A stretch of DNA of 36,252 nt from an uncultured bacterium (GCA_964606675.1 CAZSJP010000001.1:1-36252); one strand, 5' to 3'; positions 550 through 30,403 are shown, counted from the first letter of the stretch. Notes: generated by a model from the sequence alone, not told the origin. Made by a program: numbers and translations.

Positions 550-2160
550 TCATCCCCGGCCGTCCCAAAGCGCAATCGATACGCCCGGCTCACCGGGAAG
601 AACCCATCCCGGCGTCAGGAAACGGCTATGACACAGACCCGCAGGGCGGCTGTTGATCTCCAAAGCGACGCCCTGAGCGACGTCGTCCTCGCCGCTTTCG
701 ACCAGCATGTCCAGGCCGGCCAGCCGCAGCCTTTCGCCCCGAGTGTGCGCCGCCTGTCGATGGAATGACTCGATCGCCAGCACTACCGTATCGGTGATCC
801 GGAGCACGTCGTCGTCATTCAATGCACGTTCGTCGTCACCAGGATCGATCAGTCGCAGCCGCTCGTGAACTATCGGGTACGCCCTCCCACTCCTGGCGAC
901 GCTTGCCACGAGGGCTTCAGGGTCATCGGCAACGTGAACGTATCCCGATTCGATCCGAACCTGGCCCTCGGCATCCGAAGTCGCGTGCAGCCGTAGTGTC
1001 GCCGGCAGCGGGACCCCGCGATCCGGCACGTAGCGAAGGTCGCCGCGCCGTTCCTGGATGATCGCGTCGTCTGTCAGGAGCACGGCCGCAACCTGATCCC
1101 ATGACGTCTCTATGCCGCCTCTCAGCAGCGAGACGCCGGCGGCTCCGGTGCCGTGCCGGGGTTTCACAAGCAAGTCTCGGTCGGTTCCCCAGGCGGCCAC
1201 TTCAGCCGCCGCCGACTTGACGGCGTTCTGCGGGCCGTCCTCCGATTCGCGCATCGATCCCCGAGTCACCAGTGCGCTCCGCGGCGATGGAACACCCGCC
1301 GAGGCCCACGCATCGTGAACGAACCACTTGTCGTCCGCGGCCAAGGAAGCTGAGGAGGAATTAGCTATGGCGGCACGATGTCCCATCAGTTCCGATGCGG
1401 TCCTCAGGTGCCATACTCCCTCGGCATCGCGCGGTCCCAGAAGAAGCAGCGCCGAGCTTACGCGGACGGACGGCGAAAGGTCGGCTTCAGCGATCCGATC
1501 GGTACCCGCGTCGTACCAGGCCGCGCGCGATAGACGACCATCGACGCCGAACCACGAGGCGTGAGCCGCAACCGCGATGCCGCCTATGGAACCCGCCGCG
1601 CGCGCTTGCAGCGCGTCGACAAGCAGCGGCCAGAACTCGTGCGAGGAATGGGGCCGGCGCTCGAAGACGATAGCGTGGTAGCCGACGTCAGGCTGCGGAG
1701 CGGAAGCGTCGAGCAGCCTCGTCGGTGGCGCCAACGGATGGCTGGTCAAGGTGTCGGCCGCAAAGGCTGCGATGCTGTGGCGGTGCTCCGCCAGAAGCGC
1801 TCGTGCCGCCTGTTCCGTGGGCAGGCCCTCGGTCTCACCGAGACGAACGGGGAGTGTGGCGTGGTGCGTACCGAGCCACCCGGCGGCCTCATCTTCGAGG
1901 CTCTGCCACGCGGCGGGTTTGTGCGGCGGCGATCCCCGAGCGACCGAGAACGGCCGATCGGGAGGCGCCAGAGCGCAGGCTACGACCCGGGCCAGAAGCG
2001 GAGCGATGTCGTCAGGCAGCGTCGCGCCGGGGCAGTCGGATTCAAGCAGCCTGCGACCGACAGAGATCAGGCCTTCGAGATACCTTCTATCCGTCGGCGC
2101 GCGGCCCGCGTCGGTCGCAACCTCTTGCGGCCTCGATGCTCCGATCGTACCCACTGGCAT
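550..2160 (-). CDS. ATP-grasp fold protein (RimK/GshB-like C-terminal half; N-terminal ~300 aa unknown)
   Basis: 536-aa ORF starting 12 nt after the stop of the giant ORF. ATP-grasp blocks appear in canonical order: DKWFVHDAWASAGVPSP, LLVKPRHGTGAAGVSLL, AIIQERRGDLRY, LAGLDMLVES...GVALEINSRPAGL. No signal peptide or TM segment seen. Confidence 0.7.
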   Translation of the reverse strand: MPVGTIGASRPQEVATDAGRAPTDRRYLEGLISVGRRLLESDCPGATLPDDIAPLLARVVACALAPPDRPFSVARGSPPHKPAAWQSLEDEAAGWLGTHHATLPVRLGETEGLPTEQAARALLAEHRHSIAAFAADTLTSHPLAPPTRLLDASAPQPDVGYHAIVFERRPHSSHEFWPLLVDALQARAAGSIGGIAVAAHASWFGVDGRLSRAAWYDAGTDRIAEADLSPSVRVSSALLLLGPRDAEGVWHLRTASELMGHRAAIANSSSASLAADDKWFVHDAWASAGVPSPRSALVTRGSMRESEDGPQNAVKSAAAEVAAWGTDRDLLVKPRHGTGAAGVSLLRGGIETSWDQVAAVLLTDDAIIQERRGDLRYVPDRGVPLPATLRLHATSDAEGQVRIESGYVHVADDPEALVASVARSGRAYPIVHERLRLIDPGDDERALNDDDVLRITDTVVLAIESFHRQAAHTRGERLRLAGLDMLVESGEDDVAQGVALEINSRPAGLCHSRFLTPGWVLPGEPGVSIALWDGRG

Positions 2161-2172
2161 GGCAAGTTCCCG

Positions 2173-5100
2173 TCAGCGACCCGACTTATCCCGAAGTGCG
2201 GTCATGTACTCGGTGCCCGCTCGCGTGAGGTCGCGCAACACGATCCGTGCGTTCTCGCCAACTCGGTCCCAGTTCATCGGTTCACCGGCGGCCGCAGCGC
2301 GCTCACGCTCGCGCTCCTCCTCGCGGATTGCTACGCGGTCCCACAGGCCGACACCGATGTTCGGTTCGATCAGAATCACCTGCCAATCGACGATCTTGCC
2401 CTCGAAAGTGCATGATCCGTCGTGAAGCATGAACAGCGAGCCGACCCTGGTCTCGCTTTCATCGAGGTCCGGAGCGATCTCTACCAGCTCGCCGGGCCTA
2501 TCGAACACCGGTCGCAGGAGGAAGTCGAGCATCAGATACCGTGGCACACCGTAGGAGACTCCCGTGAGGTCGCATCCTATGGCGTCGCCGGTCTCTTCCT
2601 CGTATTCGGAAGCGGTCTGGTTCTCGTACGCAGACATCGCCTCCATGGTCTTCCTGCCGGCGTCTTCGAGCGCATCAATGATCGACGACCGGAACTCCGG
2701 CCTGATGTCCGACGGCCGCAAAATCTCCAGAGTGCCGCCGCGCCCGATGTTCGTGATGAGCTGCGTGCTGTTGAGGGTGATCTTGTGGCTGACGTGCCAA
2801 TGGCGTTCGCGATCCTCCGCCTGCGGTCGGTCGGTCGAGAGGATGATCCGGAACGACCCGAACAACGGCGTCAGCGGCTGCCTATCCCTGACGATCGGGC
2901 GCGACCAGTCGGTGATCTGCCTGTCGGTGAATCTCTCCAGGAACCCCTCGGTCGCCCACGCCTCGGGCGAAGAGACGATGACCTCTTGAACCGCCACGTT
3001 ATGGTGGAGCGATATCTGGTATAGGAACTCAGCCGCGTCGTCGACCGCCTGATCGATCGGGGTACCGTCGGGTGCGCCGATCTCGAACGCTTTCTGCCTG
3101 CGGCCTCCCGATTCGGCGGCATCTTTGACCATGACGATCCTGTGCTGCCGCGCGAACGAGATCAGCCCCTCGAACGACGAATCCGGCCGGCCGCGTTTGA
3201 TGTGCTCCAGCACGGTCGGTTCGTCCGAGTCGGTCGTCCACTCATGCAGCCAGTCGATCTCGTCGGGGAACGTCACGCCGGTGTCGGGAGTGAAGATGTC
3301 CGCGTATTTGGCTTTGTCGTACGTCGTCCACGTGTGGTACCGCGACTGTATCGAAAATGGCAATCCGAGCCGTTCCAGATGCCCGCCGTCATACACCTCG
3401 CTGCCGTGCATCGGTAGAACGACCGCGGCTGTCACCGGCTCGGAGAAGCGCGCGGCTATCCGCACGCCCTTGGGGCCGACGTCCCTGTCGGCGATCGCTT
3501 CGGCGCCGCTCTCGCTGAGGCCCCAGTGCATCCGGAGTGCCGCCGTATAGGTCCCTCTTTCGACGTAGAGATGGGCGTCGTCGATCTCGATGCGATCGCC
3601 TCTGATGTGCCCCTGGCGCGTGAGGAGAATGTTGGCTGCGGGCTGCCCATCCGCGACAAGCTCTCGCGCCAGCGTCGGCCCCTCGGCCAACATGCGCGAT
3701 ATGTGCGTTCTTCCGACCGGGTACAACGCCACCAGATTTACACGATGTCGGGCATCTACGAGCGACGGGCCGAAACCGTCGAACACCGGGGGCAGCACGA
3801 ACCCGTCGTTGCGGAGGAACGCGATCTCCCGCAGCTGGCCGTAAGCACGCCATCGCCGCTCGGCGTCGGTTGTGCCGCCGGCTCCGATGGCGCCGATCGC
3901 TACGTCACTCTCTAGCCGGCCCAGCAGCAGGTCCTGGTCTGTCACGGGGCGGTGGTAGGCTTCGGTGCGCGTCACGACGAGGTTCCTCAGATAGCCGTAG
4001 AGCCACCTGTGGTGCCGATCGGCGAGATCGTAGAGTTCGTCGTCGTGGAACTCGTCGAAGCCTATCCCCCTCGAATACGCCCACGGGCGGTACTCGTCGA
4101 AATGATCGTTTATCGTCTCGGAGAAGAACGTGGCTAGGCTGCGCCAGAGATGCCCCGCGTCGGGTTCGTCGCCTTGCCCCTGCCTGTCGGCCAACGTCGC
4201 GTCCAGCGCGCGGGCTATGTCGACGAACTCCGCCAGCGTCGCTACGCTCTCGAGCACCGACAGACGCTTCCGCTTCGGCCATTTCTCCCCTCGCGCACGC
4301 TCAATCGCGTTCTGCCCCAGATTACCGAGTGCGCCGATCTCTTCGTATCCTCCGCAGACGGACCGCAGGGCGTCCGGGTCGAGTTCCATGCCACCGAACA
4401 GCGCGCGGAAACACTCGCTCAACTCGGCGGCCTCGTCGAGGTCGTCGCATAGCTCGGCGACCATGCTCTCGGCAAGAATCCTCGTGAGCGCCATCATCCG
4501 CCCGAATGCTTCGTCGGTCTCGAAGCCCTCCGGATCGCCGAGCGTCGCGCGAATGTCGTCTACCAGTTTCGCCGCGGGTCGTGCTGCACCGCGCTCTTTG
4601 TCGAGTGTCTCATCGAAAGCGCGCCGGCGCTTGTGCAACGCGACCATTCGTCGTGCGCGTTCGGCGAGCTGCTTCCGGGTGTCCAGAGCGATGCTCGTGA
4701 CCTCTTCAGTTGCCTTGTTCGAGCTCTCGACGCCGCCTTCCTGCCGAAACGCAGGTGCGCCGGCCTGTCGCATCGGAGGCGCAAGTATCGCTGCTGCTGC
4801 GCTGGGGGTCGGCTCCGTGTCGCCTGCCGACGGCTCGACGCCGAACATCTTCTTCCGCGCGCCGGCAAACAGAGCTTCCTCGCGTGCGAGGTCCGACTCG
4901 GGCAAGCCTTCGGTTATGAACGCGCCGCCCGCCCCAAGCCAATGAACGAAGCCGAACTCCTCCGGGCCGCGCATGCGAGAAATATCCGCGAGTGCGGCGG
5001 AGACGACGTGACCGGCCTCGGTATCCCTACGGAAGCGCGTAAGTCGCTCTTCCTCTTCGAGCGCCAGAAGCGCTTCCTGCTCGTCTCTGGCCGTCGCAAC

Positions 5101-8100
5101 GAGGCGCGCGAAGTGAGCTGCGACGCTGGATGGGTCGCCAGCCAGGTAGCGCTCGCGGAACCCCTTGGCCTCGTCTCGCGTCACCTGCATACGAAGCCGC
5201 CACGATTCGACCGTATCCTCTCCGACGCCGATCGCTCGATAGACGCCCTTCTTCCCGACCTGTTCGCATGCGGCAAACCATCGCATGACGTCGTACCGCG
5301 ACATGGCGCGGCGCCGCGCTCCCGAGCCACCGTCGACGATGATCAGGGAGCTATCGGGATGACCGTAGAGCATCAGGTCGCGCAGCTCTGCCGGGCGCGC
5401 CAGAAGCTCCATGACCTGTCGGTGCGATATTCCGACGTCGAATACGTCGGCGCCCTGAAGAGCGTGCTCGTACGAGTTATCGGGCCCCAACACTGAGAGC
5501 GCCATCGCGTGGATGTATCCGCCCAGCTTCCCGGCAAGCTCGGAAGCGGCCGGATCGCCACGCAGCCTGGCCCATCGCTCGAGCCTCGGGCCGAATGTCG
5601 TCATGTTGGCCACGATGTCTTCGTCGTCGAGACCGAGCGCGTAGAGCTCGGCCTTCGCATCCTCCGCGACGTCCTCTATCGTCGTGTCGCTCGTGTAGCG
5701 CAGAACGTCCTGGGTCGAAAGACCCATCGGGCTAACGAGCCGCAACTCGCCGGGAGCGGGATATCCGGGGAACACATCGCGCAGTTGCTCCGACCCATCG
5801 TTCGGGGCAAGGCCCCAGCGCGCGGCGATCCGGCGCAACTGCGAGTCGTCGGCGCCCAGGGCGTCGACGGTGCGATCCCAACCGTCGATCATCAGTGCCG
5901 CGAGTGTCCTCGCCTCGCCGCCGAGGCTGTAACGCAGAAACTCGCCGGTGCCGGCGTATATCTCGAACTTGCGCATGCCGACCGAGAAGCGCCCATCCTG
6001 CGTGTCGGGCTTGTATTCGGCGCTCAGGACGATCTTCGCGTTCTCCGGCGTCGGCAGACGGTCGTTCTCTCTGTGAGCGTTCGCTAGCGCGTCGTATGTC
6101 AACCAGACTTTGTAGAACGGCATGAACCGATTCACGTGCTCGGCGCCTGCGATCATCGTATGCACGCCGAACCTGGCGGCGAGAGAACCGACCACCGCGC
6201 GGCCGTTCGTTAGCGGTGGCTGACCCAGTCGCTCCAGTACCGAGGCCAGGCGCGTTATCTGAAAGACTGGCACCTGCCTGCCGGACGGCCCGTCGGCGTC
6301 ACGAATGCCGAATGCTTTCCGCAAACCGTCCTCGTCGGCCAGCATCCGCTCGGCCCATGCCTCCCATTCCAGTTCGGTCGGGAAGTCTTCGCGTCCAAGC
6401 AGCACCTTGCGAGCCAGCCTCGCTACCGATGCGTGGTTGTGATCCTCGACGCCCAGCTGCCCGAGCTTGACCCCCTCCGACAGCGTCAGCACGAACTCCA
6501 GAAACAGCCCGTCCTTCGGGACGCAATACCCACCGTAGCCCTCGCCCGCCGGGTGTATCGTACGGTCTTCGCGAAGGCTCATCTGATCGCCCAGTTCCTC
6601 AACGTCGCCTCGTCCGGCCGCGTTGACCATCAGCGCCATCGCGTTGGAATACGCGAAGTGCGATGCCATCGAAGCGTTCTCGCCGGTCTTCAGTACCTCC
6701 GGCTCGGTCAGGCTGTCGAACCTCTTCACGGACTTGTTGATCAGGCCGTATACGCGTCTGCCGACTTGAGCCGCCTGCCTGTCGAGTCCGCCGACCCATT
6801 GCGCCCAGGTTTCCACCGACTCCCGCTCGCGCGGCCCCAAGTCGACACGGCTCGGCGTGTAGAGCAGGTGGTACCGCTTCGACCCGCCGGTGGCCTGGTA
6901 GTAGTGGCGCGGGTCGAGTGTAAGATGGCTGAGGCCCGCCTCCGACAGCACCTCTTTCCTGGCGGTGGTTCGGGCCAGCCTCTGGTGCCGGCGCAGCCAG
7001 TTGGCCTTGCGCTCGGCAAGAGCATCGTCGGGCTGTTCCTCGTCGAGCTTCCTCAGCAGCGCCTCGCGGGCGGCAAAGCGAACGAAAGCGCCCAAGTCGG
7101 CGGTGAAGTCGCCGTTGCCGTCCACGACGCGACGCTCCAACTCGGCGTGGCTTGCGTCAGGGCTCTGCTCGCGGAGGCCCGCCACGGCGCGGCCGATCTC
7201 CAGAACATTGCGTTCGACCACGTCCGCGAGAGCCTGCTCTTCCAGTTCCGCACGTTTCGTTCCGATGTAGGAATCGACCTCGGGCGGGTCGACCGGCGCG
7301 TTGTCCGCGTTGCTGTGCCCGAGGACCTCTCGCAGCACTGCGAGCACCGATACCTGCGCCTGAACGAGGCGATTGGCACCGATCGCCCGGCGTATGGCCG
7401 AAGCGCGAGGTATGTCCTCGGTGGCAACCATCGTGTCGACTTCGACCCCAAGGCCCAGTTCGTCGATGAGCGCTTCGCCGAGAGCCTCGATCTCGTCGCC
7501 GTACGACCGAAGGCGCTCGTCTACGGCTCCGGCGAGCCCCTCGGCATCGACGACGTTGACCAGCGCCATGCTCTCTTCGAGCCACGTCCGCACGTAGCCG
7601 TCGGTCATGTTCGCCGACTGCGTTGTCAGCACGTGCATGGCCGGTGTCCGCCTGAGCGGCCGCTCCGACAGGGGCGCCATCTCGACGCAAGCCGCTCGGT
7701 GCCGTTCGCGAACCTCGGGCGATGCATCGGCGAGCGCCGATTGCAGCCCGGAAAGCCAATCGCTCGACTGCCGGACCTGGCCGAGTACCGCCTGCCACAA
7801 CTCGTCGCCGACGATGCCAACGTCGCCGTCGTATTCATCGAGCAGGACTCGACGGACCGCATCGAGCCGTTCGCCGCCGCCGTTCCTCTCGAACTCGGCG
7901 CTGATAGCCGCGGCCGATGTATCCGATGCCAGCTTCACCGTGGCTGCAAGCGCGGCGGTCTCGTCGGCTCGTCCGTCGGTCGTCAACTTGCGCACGCGGT
8001 CGAAGTCCGCCGCGCGACCGAGGTCGGCCGATGCCGGATCCTCGTCCAGAAGCAATGCCCTGGCGAACGCGCAGTATCCGCTCAACTCCGCCGCGCGAAG

Positions 8101-9666
8101 ATTTCGCGCCCATGGTTCGGCCATCTGCTCCCTGAACGACTCCTCCATCCCCGCTTGATCGATCACGGTCTCGGTCGTCTCGACACCGTCGACGACTCGA
8201 ATACGCTCCTTGATGAACAGTGGGATCGCTTCTATCCAATGGTCTGCATGTTCGAGCCAGACGTAGTCCGGCGACGCATAGAGCCGGTCGCCGGCCTGTG
8301 GCACCAGTTGTCTCAGGTTCTCGGCTTTGCCGAGGTACGGCTCGCGCCCTTCGTTGATCTTCGCAAGCAGGTGCGAACCGGTGGGCGACGGGCGCTGACT
8401 CGCGATGAGATACGCCGCCGGACGTCGGTCGGCTTCCAGGATGCGCTCGCGGAGCGTCCCGGTCGCGCGCAGAATCGCCTCACTCACGCGCATTGTTTCG
8501 CTGAGGTCGGCCTCCGCCTTACGGTTGGACTCGGGATCGGGCGTGGCGGCCTCAACCTGAGCGCGTCTGCGCTGCAGTGCGCTCTGAGCCTGTGACCGTT
8601 GGTGCCGTAGCGTCTGCTCCTCGAGGTGATCCAGCGCGCCGGCCAACTCTGTGAGCCGCGCCTCGCTTCGGGGCCTTGCGAGCAGCGTAATCCTGTCGGC
8701 GGCGGGACGCAGATTGCTCCACGGCTCGGCGCATTCGGCAACGTCGTCGGCCGCGGCCGCTACTTCGTCCGTGATCGTGACAAGCCGCGCGTGCGCGAAC
8801 AGGAGCGCCTGGTTGTGGAACGCACGACTCATCCTGCCGAAGATCAGCTCTTCGTCGCTCCACGCGGACTCGCCGCTTATCCGCTCCGCGTTGCACCTCT
8901 CCGTGCCCCGGTGGTAGCCGCGAACGATCTGGTAGAGGGCCAGTCGCGCTTCGTCCGGGTCCATGTTGGCCCGAAGCGTCTCGGCTATGGCCGCACGGTC
9001 GTACGGCAGATCCAGCCGGGCCTGCCCGAGAAGCCACGTTATGCAACGTTGTCGCCACTCGTCGGCCGAATCGCCCGCGTCACCCATCGCCTCCTTGTCG
9101 TCGAGCGAACGGAGAAAACGACCGAATATGCCCCCTGCATCGATCCGAAGCGAATCGATACCACTCAGAACGGCGTGTCGGTCGGCTGCAGTGCTTTCAT
9201 CCCAAACTGCGAGCGATGACGCGAGCGCGGATCGGTCGTCTGTCGCACCGCCTATGGTTTCACGAGCGAATGCTCCCGCCATCTGCAACAGCGTGACCGC
9301 GCATTTGTGAGCCGCCTCCGGCCCAGCGACCTTCCTGCCCGAGAGCGTCAGCCCTGCTCCCGCTGCGAAGTCCGCCGCGATCTCCACCTTCGCCTCGGCG
9401 CACCTGACTACGAGCAGGCTCTCGGCGCCGGCACTGTATTCGACTGATGCGTTCTCGGCCCACGCGGCCTCACCCCACGCCTCCCGGCAGAGCGCCGCCG
9501 TCAGATCGGCGTCAGGCTCCGAAGCGATCGATCCGTCCGCCACCGCCCGCCATCGTGCTCGGCGGTCATCTTCGGCGTGAATGCATCTTACGGGAAATGC
9601 GGAGCGCGTGGCGCCCCAGCAGGGTACTGTTTCGGCTTTGGTGTGTTCGTCGCCGGCAGATGGCAT
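2173..9666 (-). CDS. giant multidomain protein (~2,500 aa): nucleotide-sugar dehydrogenase-like core plus C-terminal ATP-grasp-like module, remainder unknown
   Basis: Uninterrupted ORF of 2,508 codons from GTG 9699. The ATG at 9666 has GAGG 6 nt upstream and is the likelier start. UDP-glucose/GDP-mannose dehydrogenase family blocks: YTPSRVDLGPRE, NASMASHFAYSNAMALMVNA, GEGYGGYCVPKDG (Cys codon 6523-6525) and VLSAEYKPDTQDGRFS. C-terminal ATP-grasp-like blocks: IVMVKDAAESGG, VAVQEVI, ITNIGRGGTLE, VILIEPNIGVG. No signal peptide or TM segment seen. Confidence 0.9.
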   Translation of the reverse strand: MPSAGDEHTKAETVPCWGATRSAFPVRCIHAEDDRRARWRAVADGSIASEPDADLTAALCREAWGEAAWAENASVEYSAGAESLLVVRCAEAKVEIAADFAAGAGLTLSGRKVAGPEAAHKCAVTLLQMAGAFARETIGGATDDRSALASSLAVWDESTAADRHAVLSGIDSLRIDAGGIFGRFLRSLDDKEAMGDAGDSADEWRQRCITWLLGQARLDLPYDRAAIAETLRANMDPDEARLALYQIVRGYHRGTERCNAERISGESAWSDEELIFGRMSRAFHNQALLFAHARLVTITDEVAAAADDVAECAEPWSNLRPAADRITLLARPRSEARLTELAGALDHLEEQTLRHQRSQAQSALQRRRAQVEAATPDPESNRKAEADLSETMRVSEAILRATGTLRERILEADRRPAAYLIASQRPSPTGSHLLAKINEGREPYLGKAENLRQLVPQAGDRLYASPDYVWLEHADHWIEAIPLFIKERIRVVDGVETTETVIDQAGMEESFREQMAEPWARNLRAAELSGYCAFARALLLDEDPASADLGRAADFDRVRKLTTDGRADETAALAATVKLASDTSAAAISAEFERNGGGERLDAVRRVLLDEYDGDVGIVGDELWQAVLGQVRQSSDWLSGLQSALADASPEVRERHRAACVEMAPLSERPLRRTPAMHVLTTQSANMTDGYVRTWLEESMALVNVVDAEGLAGAVDERLRSYGDEIEALGEALIDELGLGVEVDTMVATEDIPRASAIRRAIGANRLVQAQVSVLAVLREVLGHSNADNAPVDPPEVDSYIGTKRAELEEQALADVVERNVLEIGRAVAGLREQSPDASHAELERRVVDGNGDFTADLGAFVRFAAREALLRKLDEEQPDDALAERKANWLRRHQRLARTTARKEVLSEAGLSHLTLDPRHYYQATGGSKRYHLLYTPSRVDLGPRERESVETWAQWVGGLDRQAAQVGRRVYGLINKSVKRFDSLTEPEVLKTGENASMASHFAYSNAMALMVNAAGRGDVEELGDQMSLREDRTIHPAGEGYGGYCVPKDGLFLEFVLTLSEGVKLGQLGVEDHNHASVARLARKVLLGREDFPTELEWEAWAERMLADEDGLRKAFGIRDADGPSGRQVPVFQITRLASVLERLGQPPLTNGRAVVGSLAARFGVHTMIAGAEHVNRFMPFYKVWLTYDALANAHRENDRLPTPENAKIVLSAEYKPDTQDGRFSVGMRKFEIYAGTGEFLRYSLGGEARTLAALMIDGWDRTVDALGADDSQLRRIAARWGLAPNDGSEQLRDVFPGYPAPGELRLVSPMGLSTQDVLRYTSDTTIEDVAEDAKAELYALGLDDEDIVANMTTFGPRLERWARLRGDPAASELAGKLGGYIHAMALSVLGPDNSYEHALQGADVFDVGISHRQVMELLARPAELRDLMLYGHPDSSLIIVDGGSGARRRAMSRYDVMRWFAACEQVGKKGVYRAIGVGEDTVESWRLRMQVTRDEAKGFRERYLAGDPSSVAAHFARLVATARDEQEALLALEEEERLTRFRRDTEAGHVVSAALADISRMRGPEEFGFVHWLGAGGAFITEGLPESDLAREEALFAGARKKMFGVEPSAGDTEPTPSAAAAILAPPMRQAGAPAFRQEGGVESSNKATEEVTSIALDTRKQLAERARRMVALHKRRRAFDETLDKERGAARPAAKLVDDIRATLGDPEGFETDEAFGRMMALTRILAESMVAELCDDLDEAAELSECFRALFGGMELDPDALRSVCGGYEEIGALGNLGQNAIERARGEKWPKRKRLSVLESVATLAEFVDIARALDATLADRQGQGDEPDAGHLWRSLATFFSETINDHFDEYRPWAYSRGIGFDEFHDDELYDLADRHHRWLYGYLRNLVVTRTEAYHRPVTDQDLLLGRLESDVAIGAIGAGGTTDAERRWRAYGQLREIAFLRNDGFVLPPVFDGFGPSLVDARHRVNLVALYPVGRTHISRMLAEGPTLARELVADGQPAANILLTRQGHIRGDRIEIDDAHLYVERGTYTAALRMHWGLSESGAEAIADRDVGPKGVRIAARFSEPVTAAVVLPMHGSEVYDGGHLERLGLPFSIQSRYHTWTTYDKAKYADIFTPDTGVTFPDEIDWLHEWTTDSDEPTVLEHIKRGRPDSSFEGLISFARQHRIVMVKDAAESGGRRQKAFEIGAPDGTPIDQAVDDAAEFLYQISLHHNVAVQEVIVSSPEAWATEGFLERFTDRQITDWSRPIVRDRQPLTPLFGSFRIILSTDRPQAEDRERHWHVSHKITLNSTQLITNIGRGGTLEILRPSDIRPEFRSSIIDALEDAGRKTMEAMSAYENQTASEYEEETGDAIGCDLTGVSYGVPRYLMLDFLLRPVFDRPGELVEIAPDLDESETRVGSLFMLHDGSCTFEGKIVDWQVILIEPNIGVGLWDRVAIREEERERERAAAAGEPMNWDRVGENARIVLRDLTRAGTEYMTALRDKSGR

Positions 9667-9938
9667 CGATGACCTCGATCTTGTTCGGTCTGTTCGCACG
9701 CCGGCATCGCCAGCCGAGCGTGCGATTGGGCAGGAACGCTCTTCGGGAGGGCTGCGGGACAGCCACTCGCACGGTCACGACAACATGACCGTAAAAATGA
9801 AAAATACGACCGATCCGTACACGGGGGCAACGAAGGTAGGGAGAAGTCGTTCCGCTTGGCTCCGCTCGCCAAGCGAGGTACCATCTCCGTCGACGAGCTG
9901 CAACGCAGAGCGGCCACGGGTGAGAAGCGGAGTGGGCA

Positions 9939-11680: not shown

Positions 11681-12192
11681 TGGACGGGTTGCACGTGCGG
11701 CCGGCCGAGGCCCCCGACGTGTTGCCCATCGTCGCGATGGAGGCCGAGTCGTTTCCGGCGCCGTGGTCGGATACGCAGATCGCGCCGTATGTCGGCACAC
11801 AACAACCTGCCGCGCTGGTCGCGGTTCTCTGCGGCTCTTCGTGTGGGTACCTGCTGTGCAGACTCGTGCTCGACGAAGCTGAGATCGACCGCGTCGGTGT
11901 CGATCCCGGCAACCGACGACGTGGCATCGGCCGTGCGTTGCTCCATCGGTGCCTTCACGACCTGGAGGAACGTGGCGTGAAGCGCGTCTGGCTGGAAGTG
12001 GCGTCTTCGAACGCCCCTGCGATCGGGCTGTATGAGAGCTTAGGGTTCGAGGCCGTCGACACTCGGCGCGGGTACTACGGCGCACCGTCGGGCCTTGGCC
12101 GGGGAAGCGCTCGTCAAGCGGCGGTTGCCCCGGAGGATGCACTGATGATGCGGCTTGCTCTGCAGCGACAGACGGAGACCCTACCCGCATGA
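11677..12192 (+). CDS. rimI: ribosomal-protein-alanine N-acetyltransferase (GNAT)
   Basis: GNAT motif A (VDPGNRRRGIGRALL) and RimI-like N-terminus (IVAMEAESFPAPWS). The start (GTG 11677 or ATG 11680) overlaps the deacetylase stop TGA at 11678-11680. Confidence 0.85.
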   Translation: MMDGLHVRPAEAPDVLPIVAMEAESFPAPWSDTQIAPYVGTQQPAALVAVLCGSSCGYLLCRLVLDEAEIDRVGVDPGNRRRGIGRALLHRCLHDLEERGVKRVWLEVASSNAPAIGLYESLGFEAVDTRRGYYGAPSGLGRGSARQAAVAPEDALMMRLALQRQTETLPA

Positions 12193-20558: not shown

Positions 20559-21587
20559 TCAGCCCCGGTATTTCGCCCGTAGAGCGTCCATCTCCCGCTC
20601 GTATACGTCCATGCGGTCGTCGTCGATGCCGGCGCGTTTCGAGCCGTATGGCGAGCCGGTCGTCTTCGTATAGGGCTGTACGTTCGCGCCCTTGCGCGCG
20701 GCGTACATCAGGCCGCCGATGCCAGTGTCGACCCCCTCGGACACTTCTATCGCACGGCAGCTGTCGAACGACGCCTCCCGCGCACCGACGATGTCCTTTG
20801 CGAGCATTCTGTCGTAGATCGCTCGCAGCGTTTCAGGATTCGTGTTGCATCCCTGACCGATGACTCCGGCGGCGCCAAGCGTGATGGCGAACATGTACGC
20901 CAGTTCGTCGCCAGCAATGAAGGCGAAGTTCGTGTCGGCGGCAACCATCGCCAGCCATTCCAGGCGAACCATTTCCCCGGATGAGAACTTCATCCCTGCG
21001 ATGTTCGGCAGTTCGAGCAGACGCGCAAGCAACGAAGGCGTCATGAGATACTCTTCGGGCAGGCCCGGCGCCTGATACATCACGATCGGCACGTCGATTT
21101 CGCCGGCGACGGTCTCGAAGTACTTCACGACGGTGTCTTCGAGCGGCACGTTGTCTTCAGGGGCCAGAGCCGCCGGAAGAACCAGTACGACGGCGGTCGA
21201 TCCCTCTTTCTGGGCATGCTGAGACAGCTCGATACTCTCTCGCGTGAACACTTCCGGGTCGGGACGATCCGCCGTGTTGCCACCGTAGATGCCCGACGTG
21301 CCCGGCATGACTCCTGCCCGCCCGTCCGCCTGGTCGATGACGATCTCGGATATCTTCTTCACCTCGTCGTAATCGAACGCGTACATGCGCCCGAGCCCGC
21401 AGCGGGGGAACAGCGTGGTGATCGAGCCGATTCCGATCAGGTAGTCCGTGTATGCCCGGATTCCCGCATCGTCTAAGGTGCCATCGGGGTTGCATGGCGT
21501 GAACATCGGCGTGATGACGCCGTGCAGAAAGGCGGGTATTTCTTGGCCTGAGTAGGGTTGCGTGACTGGGGTCGTCCATTTGTCCAC
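20559..21587 (-). CDS. DapA/N-acetylneuraminate-lyase-family class I aldolase, divergent paralogue 1
   Basis: Collinear with DapA: VITPMFTPC, PGTSG, VMYQAPG (Tyr of the YN.P block), GMKFSSGE (Schiff-base Lys position), IAGDE. GTG start at 21587 has AGGAG upstream. Confidence 0.85.
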   Translation of the reverse strand: MDKWTTPVTQPYSGQEIPAFLHGVITPMFTPCNPDGTLDDAGIRAYTDYLIGIGSITTLFPRCGLGRMYAFDYDEVKKISEIVIDQADGRAGVMPGTSGIYGGNTADRPDPEVFTRESIELSQHAQKEGSTAVVLVLPAALAPEDNVPLEDTVVKYFETVAGEIDVPIVMYQAPGLPEEYLMTPSLLARLLELPNIAGMKFSSGEMVRLEWLAMVAADTNFAFIAGDELAYMFAITLGAAGVIGQGCNTNPETLRAIYDRMLAKDIVGAREASFDSCRAIEVSEGVDTGIGGLMYAARKGANVQPYTKTTGSPYGSKRAGIDDDRMDVYEREMDALRAKYRG

Positions 21588-21634
21588 GTTCTGGTCTCCT
21601 GAAGGCTATGTCGTGCAAGGGCGCTACGGCGATG

Positions 21635-22708
21635 CTATTGGCCGGTGCGCTCCCACCACTGATTCTGCGTGTAGCGGCTTCTAAGCTCGTCCATCTGCCT
21701 GACGAACCGCTCTAATCTTTCGGAGGACACCGGCTCGATTCCAGCCTTCGTAAACGGCTGTATCGGCTTGCCTTTGTACGCCAGGTAGCTCAGCCCGGCG
21801 GCGACGGCGTTCAACCCGTCGGTGATCGATACGGCGCGGCTTGCGTCCATCGCGGCGCGGCTCGCTCCGGCGTAGTCGGAGGCCATCAGCCGCTCGTACA
21901 CGGCTTTGAGTATCTCGGGGTTGTTGCTCGCTCCTTGTCCAATGACGCCCGTGCCTCCGAGCATGAACAGCGCCGAGAACGCGCGCTCGTCTCCGGCGAT
22001 CAGGGCGAAATCGCTGCCCTCCACTACCTCCGCGATCAGGGTCAGTGGGTTCATCCTGTCGGTCGAGTACTTCAGCCCGACGATGTTCGGGATTGCCATG
22101 AGTCGTTCCAGCAGCCTCGGTCCGATCCGGTAAGTTCGTCTATACGGCGGGGGCTGGTAGATGAGTATTGGCATATCGGTCTCGGAGGCGACGTCTCGGA
22201 AGTATTCGAATGCGGTGTCGTCGTCGCCTCTGCTCTTGACGAGTTCGGAGGGTACCAACAGTACGACGGCGATCGCATCTCTGTCCTGAGCGTGGCGGCA
22301 AAGCTCAATGCTCTGTCGGATGTATGTCGCCCGGTCCAGGGTGCCGTTGTATATGCCGGCGCACCCGGCCATGACCGGCACGCGTCCGGCCGCTTGGTCG
22401 GCCACGACGTCTATCAGCCGCTTCACCTCGTCGAATTCGAACTCGAACATCTTCCCGAGTCCGCCCCGAAGGAACAGGCCGGATATGGCTCCGGACTCGA
22501 TAAGGACGTCGGTGTACGCTCGTATCGCCGTCTCGTCGAGCGTGTGGTCGCTGTTGCACGGCGTGAACATGGGTACTATCACGCCATGGAGGTATCGAGG
22601 GGTTCGGGCGCCCGTCAGCGGGTGCACCACGGGCGCTTTCCAGTCAATCACTAGCTTCCCTTTCGGAGATCCGCGGACCGCAGGAACCGGGAGTGAGTCG
22701 TCGGCCAT
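21635..22708 (-). CDS. DapA/NAL-family class I aldolase, divergent paralogue 2
   Basis: It carries the same blocks as paralogue 1: VIVPMFTPC, LIYQPPP, GLKYSTDR, IAGDE. An alternative GTG start at 22651 (VIDWKAPVV) aligns better with the N-termini of the other two copies. Confidence 0.82.
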   Translation of the reverse strand: MADDSLPVPAVRGSPKGKLVIDWKAPVVHPLTGARTPRYLHGVIVPMFTPCNSDHTLDETAIRAYTDVLIESGAISGLFLRGGLGKMFEFEFDEVKRLIDVVADQAAGRVPVMAGCAGIYNGTLDRATYIRQSIELCRHAQDRDAIAVVLLVPSELVKSRGDDDTAFEYFRDVASETDMPILIYQPPPYRRTYRIGPRLLERLMAIPNIVGLKYSTDRMNPLTLIAEVVEGSDFALIAGDERAFSALFMLGGTGVIGQGASNNPEILKAVYERLMASDYAGASRAAMDASRAVSITDGLNAVAAGLSYLAYKGKPIQPFTKAGIEPVSSERLERFVRQMDELRSRYTQNQWWERTGQ

Positions 22709-22795
22709 GCCGCGGTGACGTCACGCAACAAGAACGTTCACGCGAGCGCATGGGGCAACCGCATCGGTGTGGTTCATATGCCCGCGCCCCCTGGC

Positions 22796-23800
22796 TCAAC
22801 TCAGGTATGGCTCCCTGATTGAGTCGAGCGCTCGCTCGGACTCGTCGAGCCGTTCGTTGGGTATCGCTCTGGTCGGAACGACGGTGTGTGGCAGAACGCG
22901 TGTCCCCTTGCGCGCGGCGTACCCGAGGCTCCAGATCGCCGAATCGACCCCGTTGGATGGCTCCAGCGCGAGGACCGAGTCCCACGCCGCCTTCCGCGCA
23001 CCATCGTAGTCTTTCGCCATCATCCGGTCGTACACGGCTCTCAGGATCTCTGCGTGCGTGTTGCAGCCTCTGCCTATGACGCCGGTCGCGCCGATCATCA
23101 TGGTGTAGATGAACGCCCGTTCGTCGCCGGCGATGAACGCGAAGTTCGTTCCCTTGGCAACGACAGCCAGCCGACCGAAAACGACCATGTTGCCGCTCGA
23201 TATCTTGACGCCGACGACGTTGGGGATTTGCAGCAGCCGCTCCAGAGTCGGCGGAGTCAGCCGGTAGGCCTGTTCGGTACCGCCCGGCTGATACAGGATG
23301 ATCGGGATATCCAGTTCGGCCGCAACCGTCTCGTAGTACTCGCATATCGTGTCGGCCAGCGGCTTGCCTTCCTCGGCGCGCAGAGCCATCGGCAGAGCGA
23401 GCACCGCAGCCGCCGCGCCGACCTTCTGGGCCAGTTGCGAAAGCTCGATGCTCTGTCGAGTGTAGATGGCCGGCGCGGGCCTCTCAGCCGGGTCGCCGGA
23501 GTACATGCCGCACGTGCCGACCACCACGGGCGCCCTGTCGCCGGCATGGTCGACGACCGTTTTCGTGAGCCGTTCGACTTGCTCGTACGAGAAGCCGTAC
23601 ATTTTTCCGACTCCCCCGCGAGGGAAGAGCGTGTCCACCTTGAGATCGTCTATGAGGAAGTCGACGTACGCGCGGACGCCGGCCTCGTCAAGTGCGCCGT
23701 CGGTGGTGCATGGCGTCGCCATCGGGGCAATCGTGCCGTGCAGGTATCGCGGTATGTCCTGCCCGCTGAATGGCTGACGAATCGTGGTGTCCTTGGCCAT
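22796..23800 (-). CDS. DapA/NAL-family class I aldolase, divergent paralogue 3
   Basis: Blocks TIAPMATPC, ILYQPGG, GVKISSGN and IAGDE. ATG 23800 is preceded by GGGAGG at 6-nt spacing. Confidence 0.85.
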   Translation of the reverse strand: MAKDTTIRQPFSGQDIPRYLHGTIAPMATPCTTDGALDEAGVRAYVDFLIDDLKVDTLFPRGGVGKMYGFSYEQVERLTKTVVDHAGDRAPVVVGTCGMYSGDPAERPAPAIYTRQSIELSQLAQKVGAAAAVLALPMALRAEEGKPLADTICEYYETVAAELDIPIILYQPGGTEQAYRLTPPTLERLLQIPNVVGVKISSGNMVVFGRLAVVAKGTNFAFIAGDERAFIYTMMIGATGVIGRGCNTHAEILRAVYDRMMAKDYDGARKAAWDSVLALEPSNGVDSAIWSLGYAARKGTRVLPHTVVPTRAIPNERLDESERALDSIREPYLS

Positions 23801-23925
23801 ATCGCACCTCCCGGCGTTGGTTCCACGGTCCCCGACGCATAACTCTACACACTACGAATATCGATGCGAACGGAGCGATACCGCAATCGGTCCGAGAGCC
23901 GACACCGGAGAAGCGAGGCGATGCG

Positions 23926-25629
23926 ATGCACGGAAAACGACTCAACAACCTGGTAACCGAATTGGCCACCGCCGCCGATCTGTCCGCAGATGGCGGCCTC
24001 TGTTTCGAGAACCCTCGCGAGGGATGGGTGTTCATCGGCCTGGCATCGGGCGATGCCGTCCTCGACGGCACGACCGTTCTCGAGGGTGGCGGCGAGACGA
24101 TGCGCTACCTGGATGCCGGTCCACACGATTTGCAGGTGGAAGGTGGCCCAACTACTGCTGAGCTTTCCGTGCGCACGGTGCCGGAACTCGCGTACTGCAA
24201 GTTCGTGTTCGATCCGCACGTGAAAGAGTACGGCCCGTACAACGCCGACTTCCTTGCCAAGCATGTCTTCCCTCACTGTAACACCGTGGTGGGGAGCGCA
24301 AGCCCGGAGACTAGAGCCTACGCCGAGAAGTGGAAGGCTGCCGGCGGCCGATGGATCATCGAGTGCCCGTTGCCGGGCCTTAGCGCCGAGACGGTCGACT
24401 TCGAGGACGTGTACAACGCATGGTCGACCAACCCCGGTATGGCCGATCCGCTGTACGACGGGGTAGTGGTCGACGAGTTCTTCTCGGGCGACAACCCCAA
24501 GTACCGCCAGTGGACCGATGCGATGAACCGGGTCCTAGACGAGAACCCCGGCAAGCGATTCTATCCGTACTTAGGCTCGCATTGGCCGGACAAGGACGAT
24601 TGGCACCGGGGCGGCAAAGACAACCGCGAAGAGAGCAGCAAGGCGTTTCTCGGTACGGCGCTCAAGAGAGGGCAGGTCATAGCCTGGGAGCGCTACGTGC
24701 AGGAGAGGCACGAGCAACAGATCGGAGCCGAGTTCATTCAGAGGCGACTGGGCGAGCCGGTGAAACGCTGGCAGGAAGTGTTCCCCGGATCGCCGGGCCA
24801 GCTGCTGGTAACGTTCGGATACATGACCATCACCGAGACGCTGAGCGTCCACCCCTCAGTCAACTACAAAGTCTTCATGGACATGCAGTTCAACTTCGTC
24901 GCGAACCGGCCCGAGTTCGACGGCCTGTACGGCATAATGGAGTACACCGCCGGATACGCCGACGAAGAGACGGTGCGCTGGGCGGCGCGGCTCTACCGAC
25001 ACTACGGAATCGAAGGCAACACGGACATGCTCACCGAGCGGCTGGGTTGGAAATACAAGTCGGATCATATCTACAACCCAGAGTTTAACTTCGACCTCGA
25101 AGGCTGGGACGTGCCGATTTGGATCGAGAGGAACGTCGCCGCCAGGAGCGTGCCTGGCTTCGGGCATATCGAGGGACGGTGGCCGCGAACCAGCGCCGGC
25201 GACACGTTCCTCTACGTGGAACGCTCGGACGAGCGCCCGAATGCTCTCAGCCAGCCGATACGAAACCTGGAGCCGGGGAAGCTCTACAGCGTCAAGATGA
25301 TCAGCGGCGACTACGGCGATCTGGTGGCGGGTCGTTCCGAGGAGAAACAGCACGGGCTGTCGTTGTCGGTCGACGGTGCTGATGTAATCGCGGGCAAGAC
25401 GTTCCGGAGCGTCGTCGCCAACAACTACGCTCACATGCAGGAGCCGTTCACGACGGCAAAGCCGTTCTGGCTCAACTTCCATCAGCTCGTATTTCGCGCC
25501 GGAGACGGCGTGGCAACGCTCAGTATCTCGGACTGGGCGACCGATGAAGAACCTGGTGGCCCGATCGGGCAGGAGCTGATGTGCAACAACGTCGAGCTGC
25601 ATCCGTACTTCGACGAGAGCGGCATGTAG
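23926..25629 (+). CDS. 567-aa protein of unknown function, paralogue A (possible glycoside-hydrolase-like enzyme with a C-terminal jelly-roll/CBM-like domain)
   Basis: The internal ATG at 23926 (MHGKRLNNLVTELA) gives exactly the same length as paralogue B and a collinear alignment. The C-terminal NPEFNFDLEGWDV... region resembles galactose-binding-like or CBM modules. No signal peptide. Confidence 0.8.
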   Translation: MHGKRLNNLVTELATAADLSADGGLCFENPREGWVFIGLASGDAVLDGTTVLEGGGETMRYLDAGPHDLQVEGGPTTAELSVRTVPELAYCKFVFDPHVKEYGPYNADFLAKHVFPHCNTVVGSASPETRAYAEKWKAAGGRWIIECPLPGLSAETVDFEDVYNAWSTNPGMADPLYDGVVVDEFFSGDNPKYRQWTDAMNRVLDENPGKRFYPYLGSHWPDKDDWHRGGKDNREESSKAFLGTALKRGQVIAWERYVQERHEQQIGAEFIQRRLGEPVKRWQEVFPGSPGQLLVTFGYMTITETLSVHPSVNYKVFMDMQFNFVANRPEFDGLYGIMEYTAGYADEETVRWAARLYRHYGIEGNTDMLTERLGWKYKSDHIYNPEFNFDLEGWDVPIWIERNVAARSVPGFGHIEGRWPRTSAGDTFLYVERSDERPNALSQPIRNLEPGKLYSVKMISGDYGDLVAGRSEEKQHGLSLSVDGADVIAGKTFRSVVANNYAHMQEPFTTAKPFWLNFHQLVFRAGDGVATLSISDWATDEEPGGPIGQELMCNNVELHPYFDESGM

Positions 25630-25704: not shown

Positions 25705-26041
25705 GGCCGTGTACGAAACGGCGCGGGGGCGCGGAGCTTGGGCCCCTTCGATCGGCTAGAACGTCGGTACGTCTTGCCCGCGGGCACGTTGGCATCGTTG
25801 TCTGCCCGGACACGGCACGCCGCCCCATTCGCTCCCGACTAGAAGTCGAGGGCTGGCGTTGCGAAGTCACTGCGGTTCCTAGGCCGCCGGACGCCCTTGC
25901 GCAGTCAGCATCGGTACGGTATTTTCCGCGACAACGCTGCTGGGAGCGGAGTGTTGGCAGAGGCTGACGTGCGGGGAGGTGCCTGTGAGGGAGTCGAAAC
26001 TGATCGCAGCGTCTCAGCCACTTGCCTGGGAGGGATACCTT

Positions 26042-29332: not shown

Positions 29333-29390
29333 CCTGCGGGCCCGCGGCCATCGAACGTGCCCGGCGATTCACCGGGCGAGCGAGGCGCAG

Positions 29391-30263
29391 ATGAAACCAG
29401 CGTGGGACGATCTGGAGCTTAACGGCATCGACCTGCACTTCCATGCGGGCACCGAACGGCTGGCGGAGTATTCACTCGCCGACGTGGTCGCTTATGCTCG
29501 CGCAACGGGACGTAAGGTGCTGGGCCTCACCGATCATTGGGGCCGATACGTTCGTCCGTCGAAGAAGGAACTTCGCCACTACACGGGTGATGCTTCCGGT
29601 TACGCGCACTTCGCGGCGGACGTGGCCGATGTAAGAACGAAGTACCCCGACGTGGCGATCGCTTTCGGGCCGGAGATACCCCTTTCCGACATCATCGACG
29701 GCAACTGCGACGCTGCGTTCGAGCCATCCGAAGTCGACTATTTCATGGGCGAACAGGGCGGCAGCGGCCCGAGCGACACAATCGGCGAGGAATACATAGC
29801 AGGAATGGAGCACATGGCTCGGCTTCGCGACCGGGTCGGCAGGCCGTGCTTCATCGCGCACCCGTTGCGCAGCCGCGTGAACTACTACGTGGGGAAGACA
29901 GGCCCCGGCCCGAAATACCCAGCGCAACCGGCGGGCGGCCCTCTTGCACATTGCGCCGACCCGTTGGCTCACGTCGACGAACTGTTCGGCATGAGCACTC
30001 GGGATCTCGCACGGGCATCGGTCGAGTACGACGTGCCGATGGAGATCAATGAGTCGAGTTGGGGGCGTATACTCGGGCAGAACCAGGAGTGGTTCGCCGA
30101 GCGCTATCTGTTCTTCTTCCGGGCGATGCTCGATATGGGCGCGGAGGTCGTGCTCGGCAGCGACCAGCACAGCGTCGAAGCGGGGGCATGCACGCCGTTT
30201 GCGGTGGCGAAGATGCTCGGCGTCAAGCCCGGCGACGTGAAGTTCTTGCGGCATTGGGTGTAG
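29391..30263 (+). CDS. PHP-domain metal-dependent phosphoesterase/hydrolase, paralogue 1 (290 aa)
   Basis: PHP motifs: GIDLHFHAGTE, LGLTDHW, FIAHPLR, MEINES and VLGSDQH (compare the GSDAH motif). ATG 29391. Confidence 0.8.
   Translation: MKPAWDDLELNGIDLHFHAGTERLAEYSLADVVAYARATGRKVLGLTDHWGRYVRPSKKELRHYTGDASGYAHFAADVADVRTKYPDVAIAFGPEIPLSDIIDGNCDAAFEPSEVDYFMGEQGGSGPSDTIGEEYIAGMEHMARLRDRVGRPCFIAHPLRSRVNYYVGKTGPGPKYPAQPAGGPLAHCADPLAHVDELFGMSTRDLARASVEYDVPMEINESSWGRILGQNQEWFAERYLFFFRAMLDMGAEVVLGSDQHSVEAGACTPFAVAKMLGVKPGDVKFLRHWV
29955..30171 (+). repeat. near-identical tract shared with 30968-31184 (copy 1)
   Basis: At a constant offset of 1013 nt I count about 7 mismatches in ~217 nt. This includes a perfect 108-nt run (29999-30106 = 31012-31119). 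The 5' halves of the two genes are clearly more diverged. Confidence 0.85.
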
Positions 30264-30403
30264 GTGGTGGTGTCGTCGTTGAAGTAGCCGACCACAGCAC
30301 CCGGCTATTCCGAACGCAGTGAGGAACCCCTATCATGTCGAGATGCTGCCTCATTTCAACGGGGGCTCTTCGGCCAGCAGACATCGAACCTCAAGAGGCG
30401 CAC

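Follow-up and report, generated by a model that had tools for sequence, protein, structure and literature searches.

The enzymes of the UDP-glucose dehydrogenase (UGDH) family share a catalytic set made up of a cysteine nucleophile in the motif GGxCxxKD, the lysine and aspartate that go with it, a KxxxN pair and a nucleotide-binding K..T.D.R motif. An ATP-grasp domain that works on a uronic acid has been described in Campylobacter jejuni, where the C-terminal TupA-like ATP-grasp of Cj1438 amidates the C6 carboxylate of glucuronate in the capsule (PMC11800379). A UGDH-like active site and ATP-grasp domains come together in a gene pair found in a 36,252-nt stretch of DNA from an uncultured bacterium (GCA_964606675.1 CAZSJP010000001.1:1-36252; the whole stretch is referred to as the window), which encodes a protein of about 2,500 amino acids (aa), here called the giant, and, directly downstream, an ATP-grasp protein of 536 aa, here called the partner. 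The giant consists of a family-specific N-terminal domain, a UGDH-derived module, a helical-repeat spacer and a predicted, divergent ATP-grasp domain. Our tentative reading is that of a cytoplasmic machine in which a carboxylate resembling a sugar nucleotide is bound and two ATP-dependent ligations are carried out. The two open reading frames (ORFs) and the gap between them are located as follows.

2173..9699, minus strand: giant ORF, 2,508 codons from GTG 9699 in the ORF list
2161..2172, minus strand: spacer of 12 nt from the giant stop to the partner start (cgggaacttgcc)
550..2160, minus strand: partner ORF, 536 aa, with its ATG start at 2160

The giant ends at the TGA codon 2173-2175. In the public NCBI gene call (P0001, 100% identity) it begins at Met12, which corresponds to ATG 9666 and gives a protein of 2,497 aa; a GAGG lies 9 nt 5' of this ATG, which is the probable start and from which giant residue numbers are counted here. 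The two ORFs and the 12-nt gap reported in the initial annotation of this DNA were confirmed by the ORF list and a check of the spacer, and a scan found no terminator-like site between giant and partner, the sigma-70/terminator scan itself being uninformative. Transmembrane helices, already said to be lacking, are indeed absent from both proteins, which hold no sufficiently hydrophobic stretch (top 19-residue Kyte-Doolittle window, 1.27-1.28); giant and partner are soluble, cytoplasmic proteins.

The part of the giant that can be related to known enzymes by sequence is its dehydrogenase-derived module, for which three features are relevant.

5287..6891, minus strand: UDP-glucose/GDP-mannose-dehydrogenase-like unit, aa 926-1460, defined by profile, Foldseek and motifs
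6523..6525, minus strand: codon of Cys1048, at the position of the catalytic, thioester-forming Cys of the UGDH family
7606..7635, minus strand: 'HVLTTQSANM' strand-loop-helix, aa 678-687, its strand at 579-584 (segment numbering) in the AlphaFold2 (AF2) model

The peptide blocks quoted in the initial annotation, namely YTPSRVDLGPRE, GYGGYCVPKDG and AEYKPDTQDGRFS, are all present in the giant translation. In order, the dehydrogenase-like unit comprises the last strands of the N-domain (YTPSRVDLG), a central domain (K993..N997; GYGGYCVPKDG), an insertion of ~140 aa, and a C-terminal domain resembling those that bind a nucleoside diphosphate (NDP), which carries AEYKPDTQDGRFS and IVDGGSGARRR. 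The only Pfam match of the giant is to the UDPG_MGDP_dh central domain (PF00984, 27.7 bits against a cut-off of 25.4), the NCBIfam model TIGR03026 is matched with E 3.5e-14 over no more than model positions 144-275 of 413, and the profile of the giant family finds 4r16 in the PDB (E 1.2e-5) as well as 4a7p and 3g79, which are UDP-ManNAc and UDP-glucose dehydrogenases, over chain residues ~148-264. Foldseek on the AF2 model returns 3g79, 3ojo and 4r16 with probabilities of 0.96-0.99, all AF2 models having been made with 32 sequences each. Cys1048 is invariant in all members examined, including the fused proteins described below as super-giants, and it is invariant together with Lys1051, Asp1052, Lys993 and Asn997 in relatives of ~25% identity as well, down to which the motifs P-S-R, K..EN, G[YF]C.PK[DE] and YK...D.R are conserved. 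Conservation extends to the motif YKPDTQDGR, which aligns weakly with 4r16 residues 280-338 (i-Evalue 84) and lies in a domain within which the AF2 model is cut; PF03720, the UDP/GDP-binding domain, gave no match in the Pfam search of the giant.

What is missing is the half of these enzymes that binds nicotinamide adenine dinucleotide (NAD). No match to a Rossmann domain of this kind was found in Pfam (PF03721, E<=1), NCBIfam or PDB profile searches, and both TIGR03026 and PDB alignments to the giant begin only at model or chain position ~144-148. GxGxxG is absent among the conserved columns of the giant alignment, and AF2 predicts one strand and then, in place of Rossmann beta2-beta5, ~240 residues of confident helices. 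The search for a hidden Rossmann domain, which combined the Pfam, NCBIfam and PDB profile searches with the AF2 secondary structure, found none. HVLTTQSANM, ~260 aa upstream of the dehydrogenase-like blocks, stands at the place expected for Rossmann beta1 and GxGxxG, without GxGxxG; its residues T681, T682, Q683, A685 and M687 are invariant, and the motif is retained in distant super-giants. In all 22 of the 22 sequences compared, the catalytic Glu of the PEF motif is replaced by Ser (Y-x-P-S-R-V). The module is best described as what a dehydrogenase leaves when its cofactor domain is taken away, namely an active site and a pocket for an NDP-sugar. The dehydrogenase core of the initial annotation therefore stands as regards its blocks, which reach significance (PF00984, TIGR03026, 4r16), but not as regards the NAD-binding half. 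Because that half is absent and the catalytic Glu is Ser in every member, production of an NDP-uronic acid, which had been suggested as well, is not supported as claimed and must be considered doubtful.

The same residues have to be weighed for the explanation that the giant is, after all, a true NAD-dependent nucleotide-sugar 6-dehydrogenase making an NDP-uronic acid, which the two ATP-grasps then amidate or peptidylate. The conserved catalytic Cys, Lys, Asp and Asn, the NDP-binding KxxTxDxR and the conserved 'LTTQSxxM' strand-loop-helix at the Rossmann beta1-alphaA place are what such an enzyme would be expected to keep, and amidation of glucuronate by an ATP-grasp has precedent (PMC11800379). 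A dehydrogenase that gives no NAD-domain match in three collections, aligns only from model position 144 of 413, shows confident helices where beta2-beta5 should be, lacks GxGxxG and has lost the PEF Glu in all members is nevertheless unlikely.

The second module of the giant that can be named lies at its C-terminus.

2176..3858, minus strand: C-terminal module, aa 1937-2497, a pre-domain plus the ATP-grasp core
2317-3414, minus strand: ATP-grasp core of the giant, ~aa 2085-2450, placed by fold and motifs

This module contains the motifs HG..Y..G.LE..GLP...YDK, VMVK2181DAAESGGR, QEVI, FR2273IIL, N2306IGRGG, LD2381F and IE2434PN2436, and the hallmarks K2181, ESGGR 2185-2189, QEVI 2227, R2273, N2306-G2311, D2381, E2434 and N2436 are invariant or nearly so and follow the canonical order. 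With the AF2 model of aa 1298-2497 (mean predicted local distance difference test, pLDDT, 84.8) as query, the best PDB match in Foldseek was the ATP-grasp 7r8q_A (probability 0.98, E 0.059), and the RimK-domain protein 5i47_B ranked third. On this predicted fold and these motifs the module is accepted as an ATP-grasp domain. The ATP-grasp blocks recognised by the initial annotation are thus upheld by predicted fold and motif order, but they fail to reach significance in profile searches. Placement by sequence was tried with a segment search, a PDB profile and a profile run against 1.84 billion representative proteins, and gave no assignment: the segment search and the 1.84-billion-protein search returned the giant family alone, and the only PDB match of the profile was Ddl 3r23 with E=1. 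The HG..G.LE..G(I/L)P...DK junction is the only stretch that aligns, weakly, to D-Ala-D-Ala ligase, where it corresponds to the N/central junction.

The partner is more easily classified, its core being placed as follows.

601-1398, minus strand: ATP-grasp core of the partner, ~aa 255-520

A profile built from 23 partner sequences matches the RimK/LysX-type structure 3vpd (E 8.9e-7), Ddl (3e-6) and LysX (1.5e-5) in the PDB, and also DcsG, GshAB and cyanophycin synthetase, the whole range running from E 9e-7 to 1e-3. Its motifs are DDK278, LVK333P and LE501IN503SRPAG, of which DDK278, K333, E501 and N503 are conserved among partner orthologues; the Gly-rich loop is also kept, and an extra N-terminal region of ~250 aa precedes the core. 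The orthologue at locus L001 lies above the Pfam cut-offs for ATPgrasp_ST and ATP-grasp_3, while the window partner taken alone matches rimK_fam at E 1e-3 only and falls below every curated cut-off. Judged by its sequence, the partner is a RimK/LysX/Ddl-type ATP-grasp ligase, in agreement with the RimK-like assignment first given to it. When the C-terminal profile of the giant was compared with the partner profile (hhalign), the two were in register at the Lys loop and N-x-GRGG, with E 0.009 and a probability of 4.5%; the two ATP-grasps are not close paralogues, and no closer relationship of the giant's domain to the partner than to the remaining ATP-grasps was detected.

These relatives of the partner bring in another explanation, in which the pair is a protein or peptide ligase or a poly-amino-acid polymerase, similar to RimK or cyanophycin synthetase, the helical regions forming a platform and the dehydrogenase-like pocket a regulatory or primer site. 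RimK/LysX-type protein-tail ligases and cyanophycin synthetase are among the best PDB matches of the partner profile, two distinct ligase sites recall the two-site logic of cyanophycin synthetase, the helical-repeat regions are very large, and at one Armatimonadota locus a PGA_cap gene, related to CapA of poly-gamma-glutamate synthesis, is found between giant and partner. Under this explanation, however, neither the recurrent linkage and fusion to a GHMP kinase nor the strict conservation of UGDH-type catalytic residues is accounted for, and no conserved candidate substrate protein is encoded nearby, which makes a protein or polymer ligase improbable.

The association of the two proteins is conserved across genomes, a point that the initial annotation had suggested checking. 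The partner is directly downstream of the giant and on the same strand at 51 of the 59 loci with at least 1.8 kb of downstream sequence. A profile search recovered 29 proteins of 2,600-7,944 aa, and in at least 17 super-giants (3,000-7,944 aa) the partner is fused behind the giant C-terminal module, in operon order. A kinase of the GHMP family is encoded downstream in 27 of the 53 loci with at least 4.5 kb of downstream sequence, in a 631-aa form in Latescibacterota, Gemmatimonadota and Planctomycetota and in a 338-aa form in Methylococcaceae; the 631-aa form matches heptose kinases and the kinase part of fucokinase Fkp, its nearest solved relatives. GHMP_kinases_N was also detected in the ~650 residues after the fused partner in six of the six super-giants tested (21.9-39.2 bits, five of them above the cut-off of 22.3). 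The contigs of four super-giants were examined and are prokaryotic, with each super-giant a single called gene. Three examples show the arrangement.

L070:3707-27541: super-giant P0159, 7,944 aa, giant plus partner plus GHMP-kinase segment, with Mannitol_dh domains after the partner
L071:8001-24794: super-giant P0137, 5,597 aa, giant plus partner plus GHMP-kinase segment, with a WD40 propeller
L069:728-13285: super-giant P0141, 4,185 aa, giant plus partner plus GHMP-kinase segment

All three are extended at the N-terminus, by as much as 3,377 aa, with no Pfam match in the added part, and the add-ons seen among super-giants include a WD40 propeller, a mannitol/mannonate-dehydrogenase domain after the partner in one and a hexapeptide-transferase repeat in another. 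Since they are linked and fused into single polypeptides, giant, partner and kinase form one functional unit, of which the window and its nearest clade carry the first two only; the occurrence of all three in polypeptides of up to 7,944 residues shows that the components work together. The two-component view taken initially was correct in so far as the pair is conserved, but it lacked the third component, a GHMP-type anomeric sugar kinase that recurs elsewhere and is absent from the window.

Some further observations concern the super-giants and the kinase. Directly after the P0137 gene, at L071:25252-32355, lies a gene for a 2,367-aa giant with FBPase_3 and HAD-hydrolase domains, which shows no BLAST similarity to the other super-giants. 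At L001:16990-19646 and ~20 other loci, a gene for a FabI-like short-chain dehydrogenase/reductase (SDR) of 255 aa overlaps that of the 631-aa GHMP kinase at the stop codon of the latter. This SDR follows the kinase in Latescibacterota, Gemmatimonadota and Planctomycetota, with DUF2064, split thiamine-pyrophosphate-enzyme and LarA-like genes further downstream, and it remains below all FabI equivalog cut-offs despite 66-78% identity across phyla.

The family to which the giant belongs occurs in several phyla and is rare. A search of 5.8 billion proteins gave ~100 full-length homologues of 2,400-2,530 aa, with 92-100% query coverage and 42-62% identity, all of them unnamed or annotated as hypothetical; those with a named source belong to Latescibacteria, Armatimonadota and Methylococcaceae. 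When each species was scanned through a single genome, 62 giant loci were located in at least six phyla, and Gemmatimonadota, Planctomycetota and Handelsmanbacteria were added to the range. The C-terminal-module profile found only 140 matches in the 1.84 billion representative proteins. Latescibacterota, Gemmatimonadota and Armatimonadota, in which the family occurs, have been little studied. Among cultured methanotrophs, the giant is encoded by Methylovulum miyakonense HT12, Methyloglobulus morosus KoM1 and Methylotetracoccus oryzae C50C1. No entry in Pfam, NCBIfam, PADLOC or the PDB covers the family as such, and no characterised relative was found, in keeping with the view of the initial annotation. 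The MAG (metagenome-assembled genome) CAZEAI01 encodes two giants (L006 and L013) with 62% and 57% identity to that of the window, of which only one adjoins a partner, so that one partner may serve several giants. One protein of 1,724 aa (P0102) was considered as a shorter architecture and rejected, as it represents the same operon broken by frameshifts.

An alignment of 32 giants shows conservation over its whole length, the mean column identity being 57%. Together with the ~100 full-length homologues, this rules out a chance ORF of high G+C content, and since these homologues are collinear and come from independent assemblies, the giant ORF is real and not a chimera; the chimeric mis-assembly that had been named as a possible refutation is itself refuted. 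An assembly chimera formed one half of an explanation whose other half is a conflict or defence system. For the latter it can be said that the giants are large, sparse and multi-paralogous, that they acquire variable add-ons such as WD40, and that an AbiE toxin-antitoxin pair adjoins one super-giant. Neither giant nor partner matches a PADLOC defence model at E<=1, however, no copies of the giant were found on plasmids or phages, and the flanks are housekeeping genes. With the chimera excluded on the grounds just given, this explanation is very improbable as a whole.

Two large parts of the giant belong to the family alone.

7687..9375, minus strand: N-terminal family-specific domain or domains, aa 98-660, helices around a small sheet in the AF2 model
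3859..5169, minus strand: helical-repeat middle region, aa 1500-1936, which includes EFREEKGxESSNKA

The N-terminal region is modelled with a pLDDT of mostly 85-95 and contains the invariant motifs FGRMSRAFHNQ (8809-8841) and HWIEAIPLFIKE (8206-8241); LTTQSAGM is another of the conserved segments outside the nameable domains. It has no sequence match in Pfam, NCBIfam or the PDB, its profile search returned only fragments of its own family, and structure comparison gave no PDB fold match and only noise in a viral fold library. The middle region is predicted to be all helices (pLDDT ~85-95, with disorder at aa 1640-1665), for which Foldseek finds generic helical-repeat proteins only. Taken together, residues ~98-920 and ~1500-2000 are confidently modelled, mostly helical, unmatched in fold by the PDB or the viral library and without a sequence relative outside the family, and ~1,300 residues are conserved, confidently folded and without such relatives. 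The regions that had been described as rich in Ala, Arg and Glu without a nameable motif are conserved, confidently folded family-specific domains and not filler.

The analysis demonstrates how the genes are built, which domains they encode, that the active-site residues are conserved and that the genes are linked and fused; for the proposed ligation machine we infer a substrate class, an order of steps and a product. The GHMP kinase would phosphorylate a sugar, and the dehydrogenase-derived pocket would then present this sugar in the form of a ligand that is a sugar acid or resembles a nucleotide sugar. Its carboxylate, probably nucleotide-linked, or an acid attached to it, might be extended by two successive amide ligations mediated by acyl phosphates, one for each ATP-grasp, and the product could be a sugar-acid/amino-acid conjugate or a short cytoplasmic polymer. 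In a bolder form of this proposal, which we consider rather doubtful, a cysteine station without an NAD domain, used for a thioester or for positioning, would stand between the GHMP kinase and the two ATP-grasps in an assembly machine that builds such a conjugate or polymer. Also at that level of doubt, the machine would do so without glycosyltransferases, non-ribosomal peptide synthetase modules or ribosomes, and the ~1,300 orphan residues would add catalytic or templating functions.

Several points weigh against the ligation machine. Oxidation by the module cannot be assumed because the NAD-binding domain is missing, and the proposal leaves the role of the invariant Cys1048 without explanation. 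The dehydrogenase-like stretch, the most conserved of the giant, oddly has the lowest confidence in the AF2 model (pLDDT 35-50), which may possibly be due to a domain that normally dimerises or to the cut of the model at residue 1297; the giant is probably dimeric by way of its central domain. As the ATP-grasp of the giant has no significant profile match in Pfam, NCBIfam, the PDB or the 1.84 billion proteins, its assignment relies on top rank, probability and motifs, and the Foldseek E-values are weak (0.06-0.4), the query being a multi-domain model of 1,200 residues. Enzymes of the ATP-grasp type can, moreover, function as kinases or have proteins as their substrates. A hidden Markov model made from the 631-aa kinases detects no GHMP kinase in the window, the closest clade of the window's pair likewise lacks an adjoining one, and no nucleotidyltransferase that would convert a sugar-1-phosphate to an NDP-sugar was identified. 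A full-text literature search returned nothing on the giant family, and no activity, substrate or product for any member. Finally, regulators of the catabolic type, present at some loci, are as compatible with catabolism as with biosynthesis.

The gene context at other loci bears on this last point. Upstream of the operons in Latescibacterota and Gemmatimonadota lie genes for a PAS histidine kinase, for a sigma-54 activator of the NtrC type and for an HDOD-like protein. This set is found at 14-23 loci (among them L009, L011, L021 and L025), at a distance of 0.1-6 kb from the giant; a consensus scan for sigma-54 promoters upstream of the giants gave chance-level matches only. In Armatimonadota, LacI or AraC regulators are encoded at the loci, and each genome has two or three giant paralogues. 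At one of these loci (L005:3826-19130) a T2SSE/MshEN-type ATPase gene is located between two giant paralogues with no adjoining partner, and at another (L074:10001-20266), the one with PGA_cap between the giant and an ATPgrasp_ST partner, an AraC regulator gene is upstream. One divergent locus has GntR/FCD, PfkB, SDR, MR_MLE and TRAP-transporter genes upstream and is followed by a gene of the extended-SDR epimerase/dehydratase family, which has several Pfam epimerase/dehydratase matches and may, to judge from its sequence, encode a UDP-glucuronate 4-epimerase. Regulators and catabolic neighbours give hints of sugars or sugar acids, and they are not conserved across loci.

It may be asked on these grounds whether giant and partner form an enzyme complex that breaks down or salvages a sugar or sugar acid from the environment, with one or both ATP-grasps acting as kinases or activating carboxylates. 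Kinases do occur among ATP-grasp enzymes, examples being inositol phosphate kinases and PPDK, which counts in favour of such a complex, as do the LacI, AraC and GntR/FCD regulators that flank several loci, the upstream genes for PfkB kinase, SDR, MR_MLE dehydratase and a TRAP transporter at one locus and the mannitol/mannonate-dehydrogenase domain fused in one super-giant. The partner clusters with amide-forming ligases, however, the catabolic genes vary from locus to locus, and the neighbours in the window are housekeeping genes, so that a catabolic complex is distinctly unlikely.

In the window, the neighbours are tsaB-like, HDAC-like deacetylase, MTAP-like, accD, ABC ATPase, holB, PSP1 and metG genes, and a putative lipoprotein gene lies downstream; the earlier statement that no glycosyltransferase, exporter or regulator adjoins the pair is correct for this window. 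Other features were noted further away. Three consecutive paralogues of the DHDPS/N-acetylneuraminate-lyase type (342, 357 and 334 aa) occupy 20559-23800 on the minus strand, and at 33735-36199, also on the minus strand, a protein of 478 aa, in which two PEGA domains are combined with a CsgG/LpoB-like lipoprotein domain, is directly followed by a bacterial Kelch-repeat beta-propeller of 342 aa. Pfam gives no match at E<=0.001 for four sizeable ORFs on the plus strand, at 23770-25629 (619 aa), 27629-29332 (567 aa), 29325-30263 (312 aa) and 30335-31276 (313 aa), and an SPFH/Band-7 protein is encoded among them at 25979-27208. ARAGORN reports a 'tRNA-???' at 11982-12065 (plus strand) with a two-base anticodon, inside ORFs that overlap one another between the genes for the deacetylase and the MTAP-like protein; it is probably a false positive.

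When the system is compared with those described, the 6-dehydrogenases for UDP-glucose, GDP-mannose and UDP-ManNAc (PF03721, PF00984 and PF03720) have the Cys of G-G-x-C-x-P-K-D, K-x-x-x-N and K-x-x-T-x-D-x-R in common with the giant, and they (4r16, 3g79, 4a7p) are its only significant matches in sequence or fold. The giant differs from them in having no Rossmann domain or GxGxxG, Ser for the catalytic Glu and the ~140-aa insertion between the central and C-terminal domains, and whereas these enzymes measure ~400-480 aa, it embeds the module in 2,500 aa. With the RimK/LysX/Ddl ligases, the partner shares the retained Lys, the Gly-rich loop and the E-x-N Mg ligands, while the C-terminal module of the giant has the same predicted fold and the same order of motifs but is too divergent for profiles. 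The kinase domains of heptose kinases and of Fkp, a bifunctional fucokinase/fucose-1-phosphate guanylyltransferase, match the third component in its 631-aa, 338-aa or fused ~650-aa form; unlike Fkp, this component has no detected nucleotidyltransferase domain. CphA1, the cyanophycin synthetase, is likewise a large cytoplasmic protein with two different ATP-dependent ligase sites, and the partner profile weakly matches its ATP-grasp, but in CphA1 the ATP-grasp is paired with a domain of the Mur-ligase type and a dehydrogenase-like module is lacking, and no Mur-ligase signal was seen in giant or partner with Pfam or PDB profiles.

The nearest functional analogy to the proposed chemistry is offered by Cj1438, in which an ATP-grasp is part of a larger multi-domain carbohydrate enzyme (PMC11800379). 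Cj1438 is fused to a GT2 glycosyltransferase and belongs to a capsule locus with exporters, whereas neither a glycosyltransferase nor an exporter is near giant and partner, and with no TupA-like Pfam match in either protein the resemblance is no more than a functional analogy. More than half of the strongly conserved, 2,500-residue giant is without a relative or structural analogue outside its family, and since the family is present in cultured methanotrophs, genetics and biochemistry are feasible; a metabolite or polymer not yet described could come to light in this way, as could a further use for the catalytic Cys of UGDH. In characterised enzymes there is no match for the combination of a cofactor-less sugar-nucleotide-dehydrogenase site with two unrelated ATP-grasps and, often, a sugar kinase; the architecture, the cofactor-less module and the ~1,300 orphan residues are unprecedented among characterised proteins, while the recognisable pieces come from known superfamilies.

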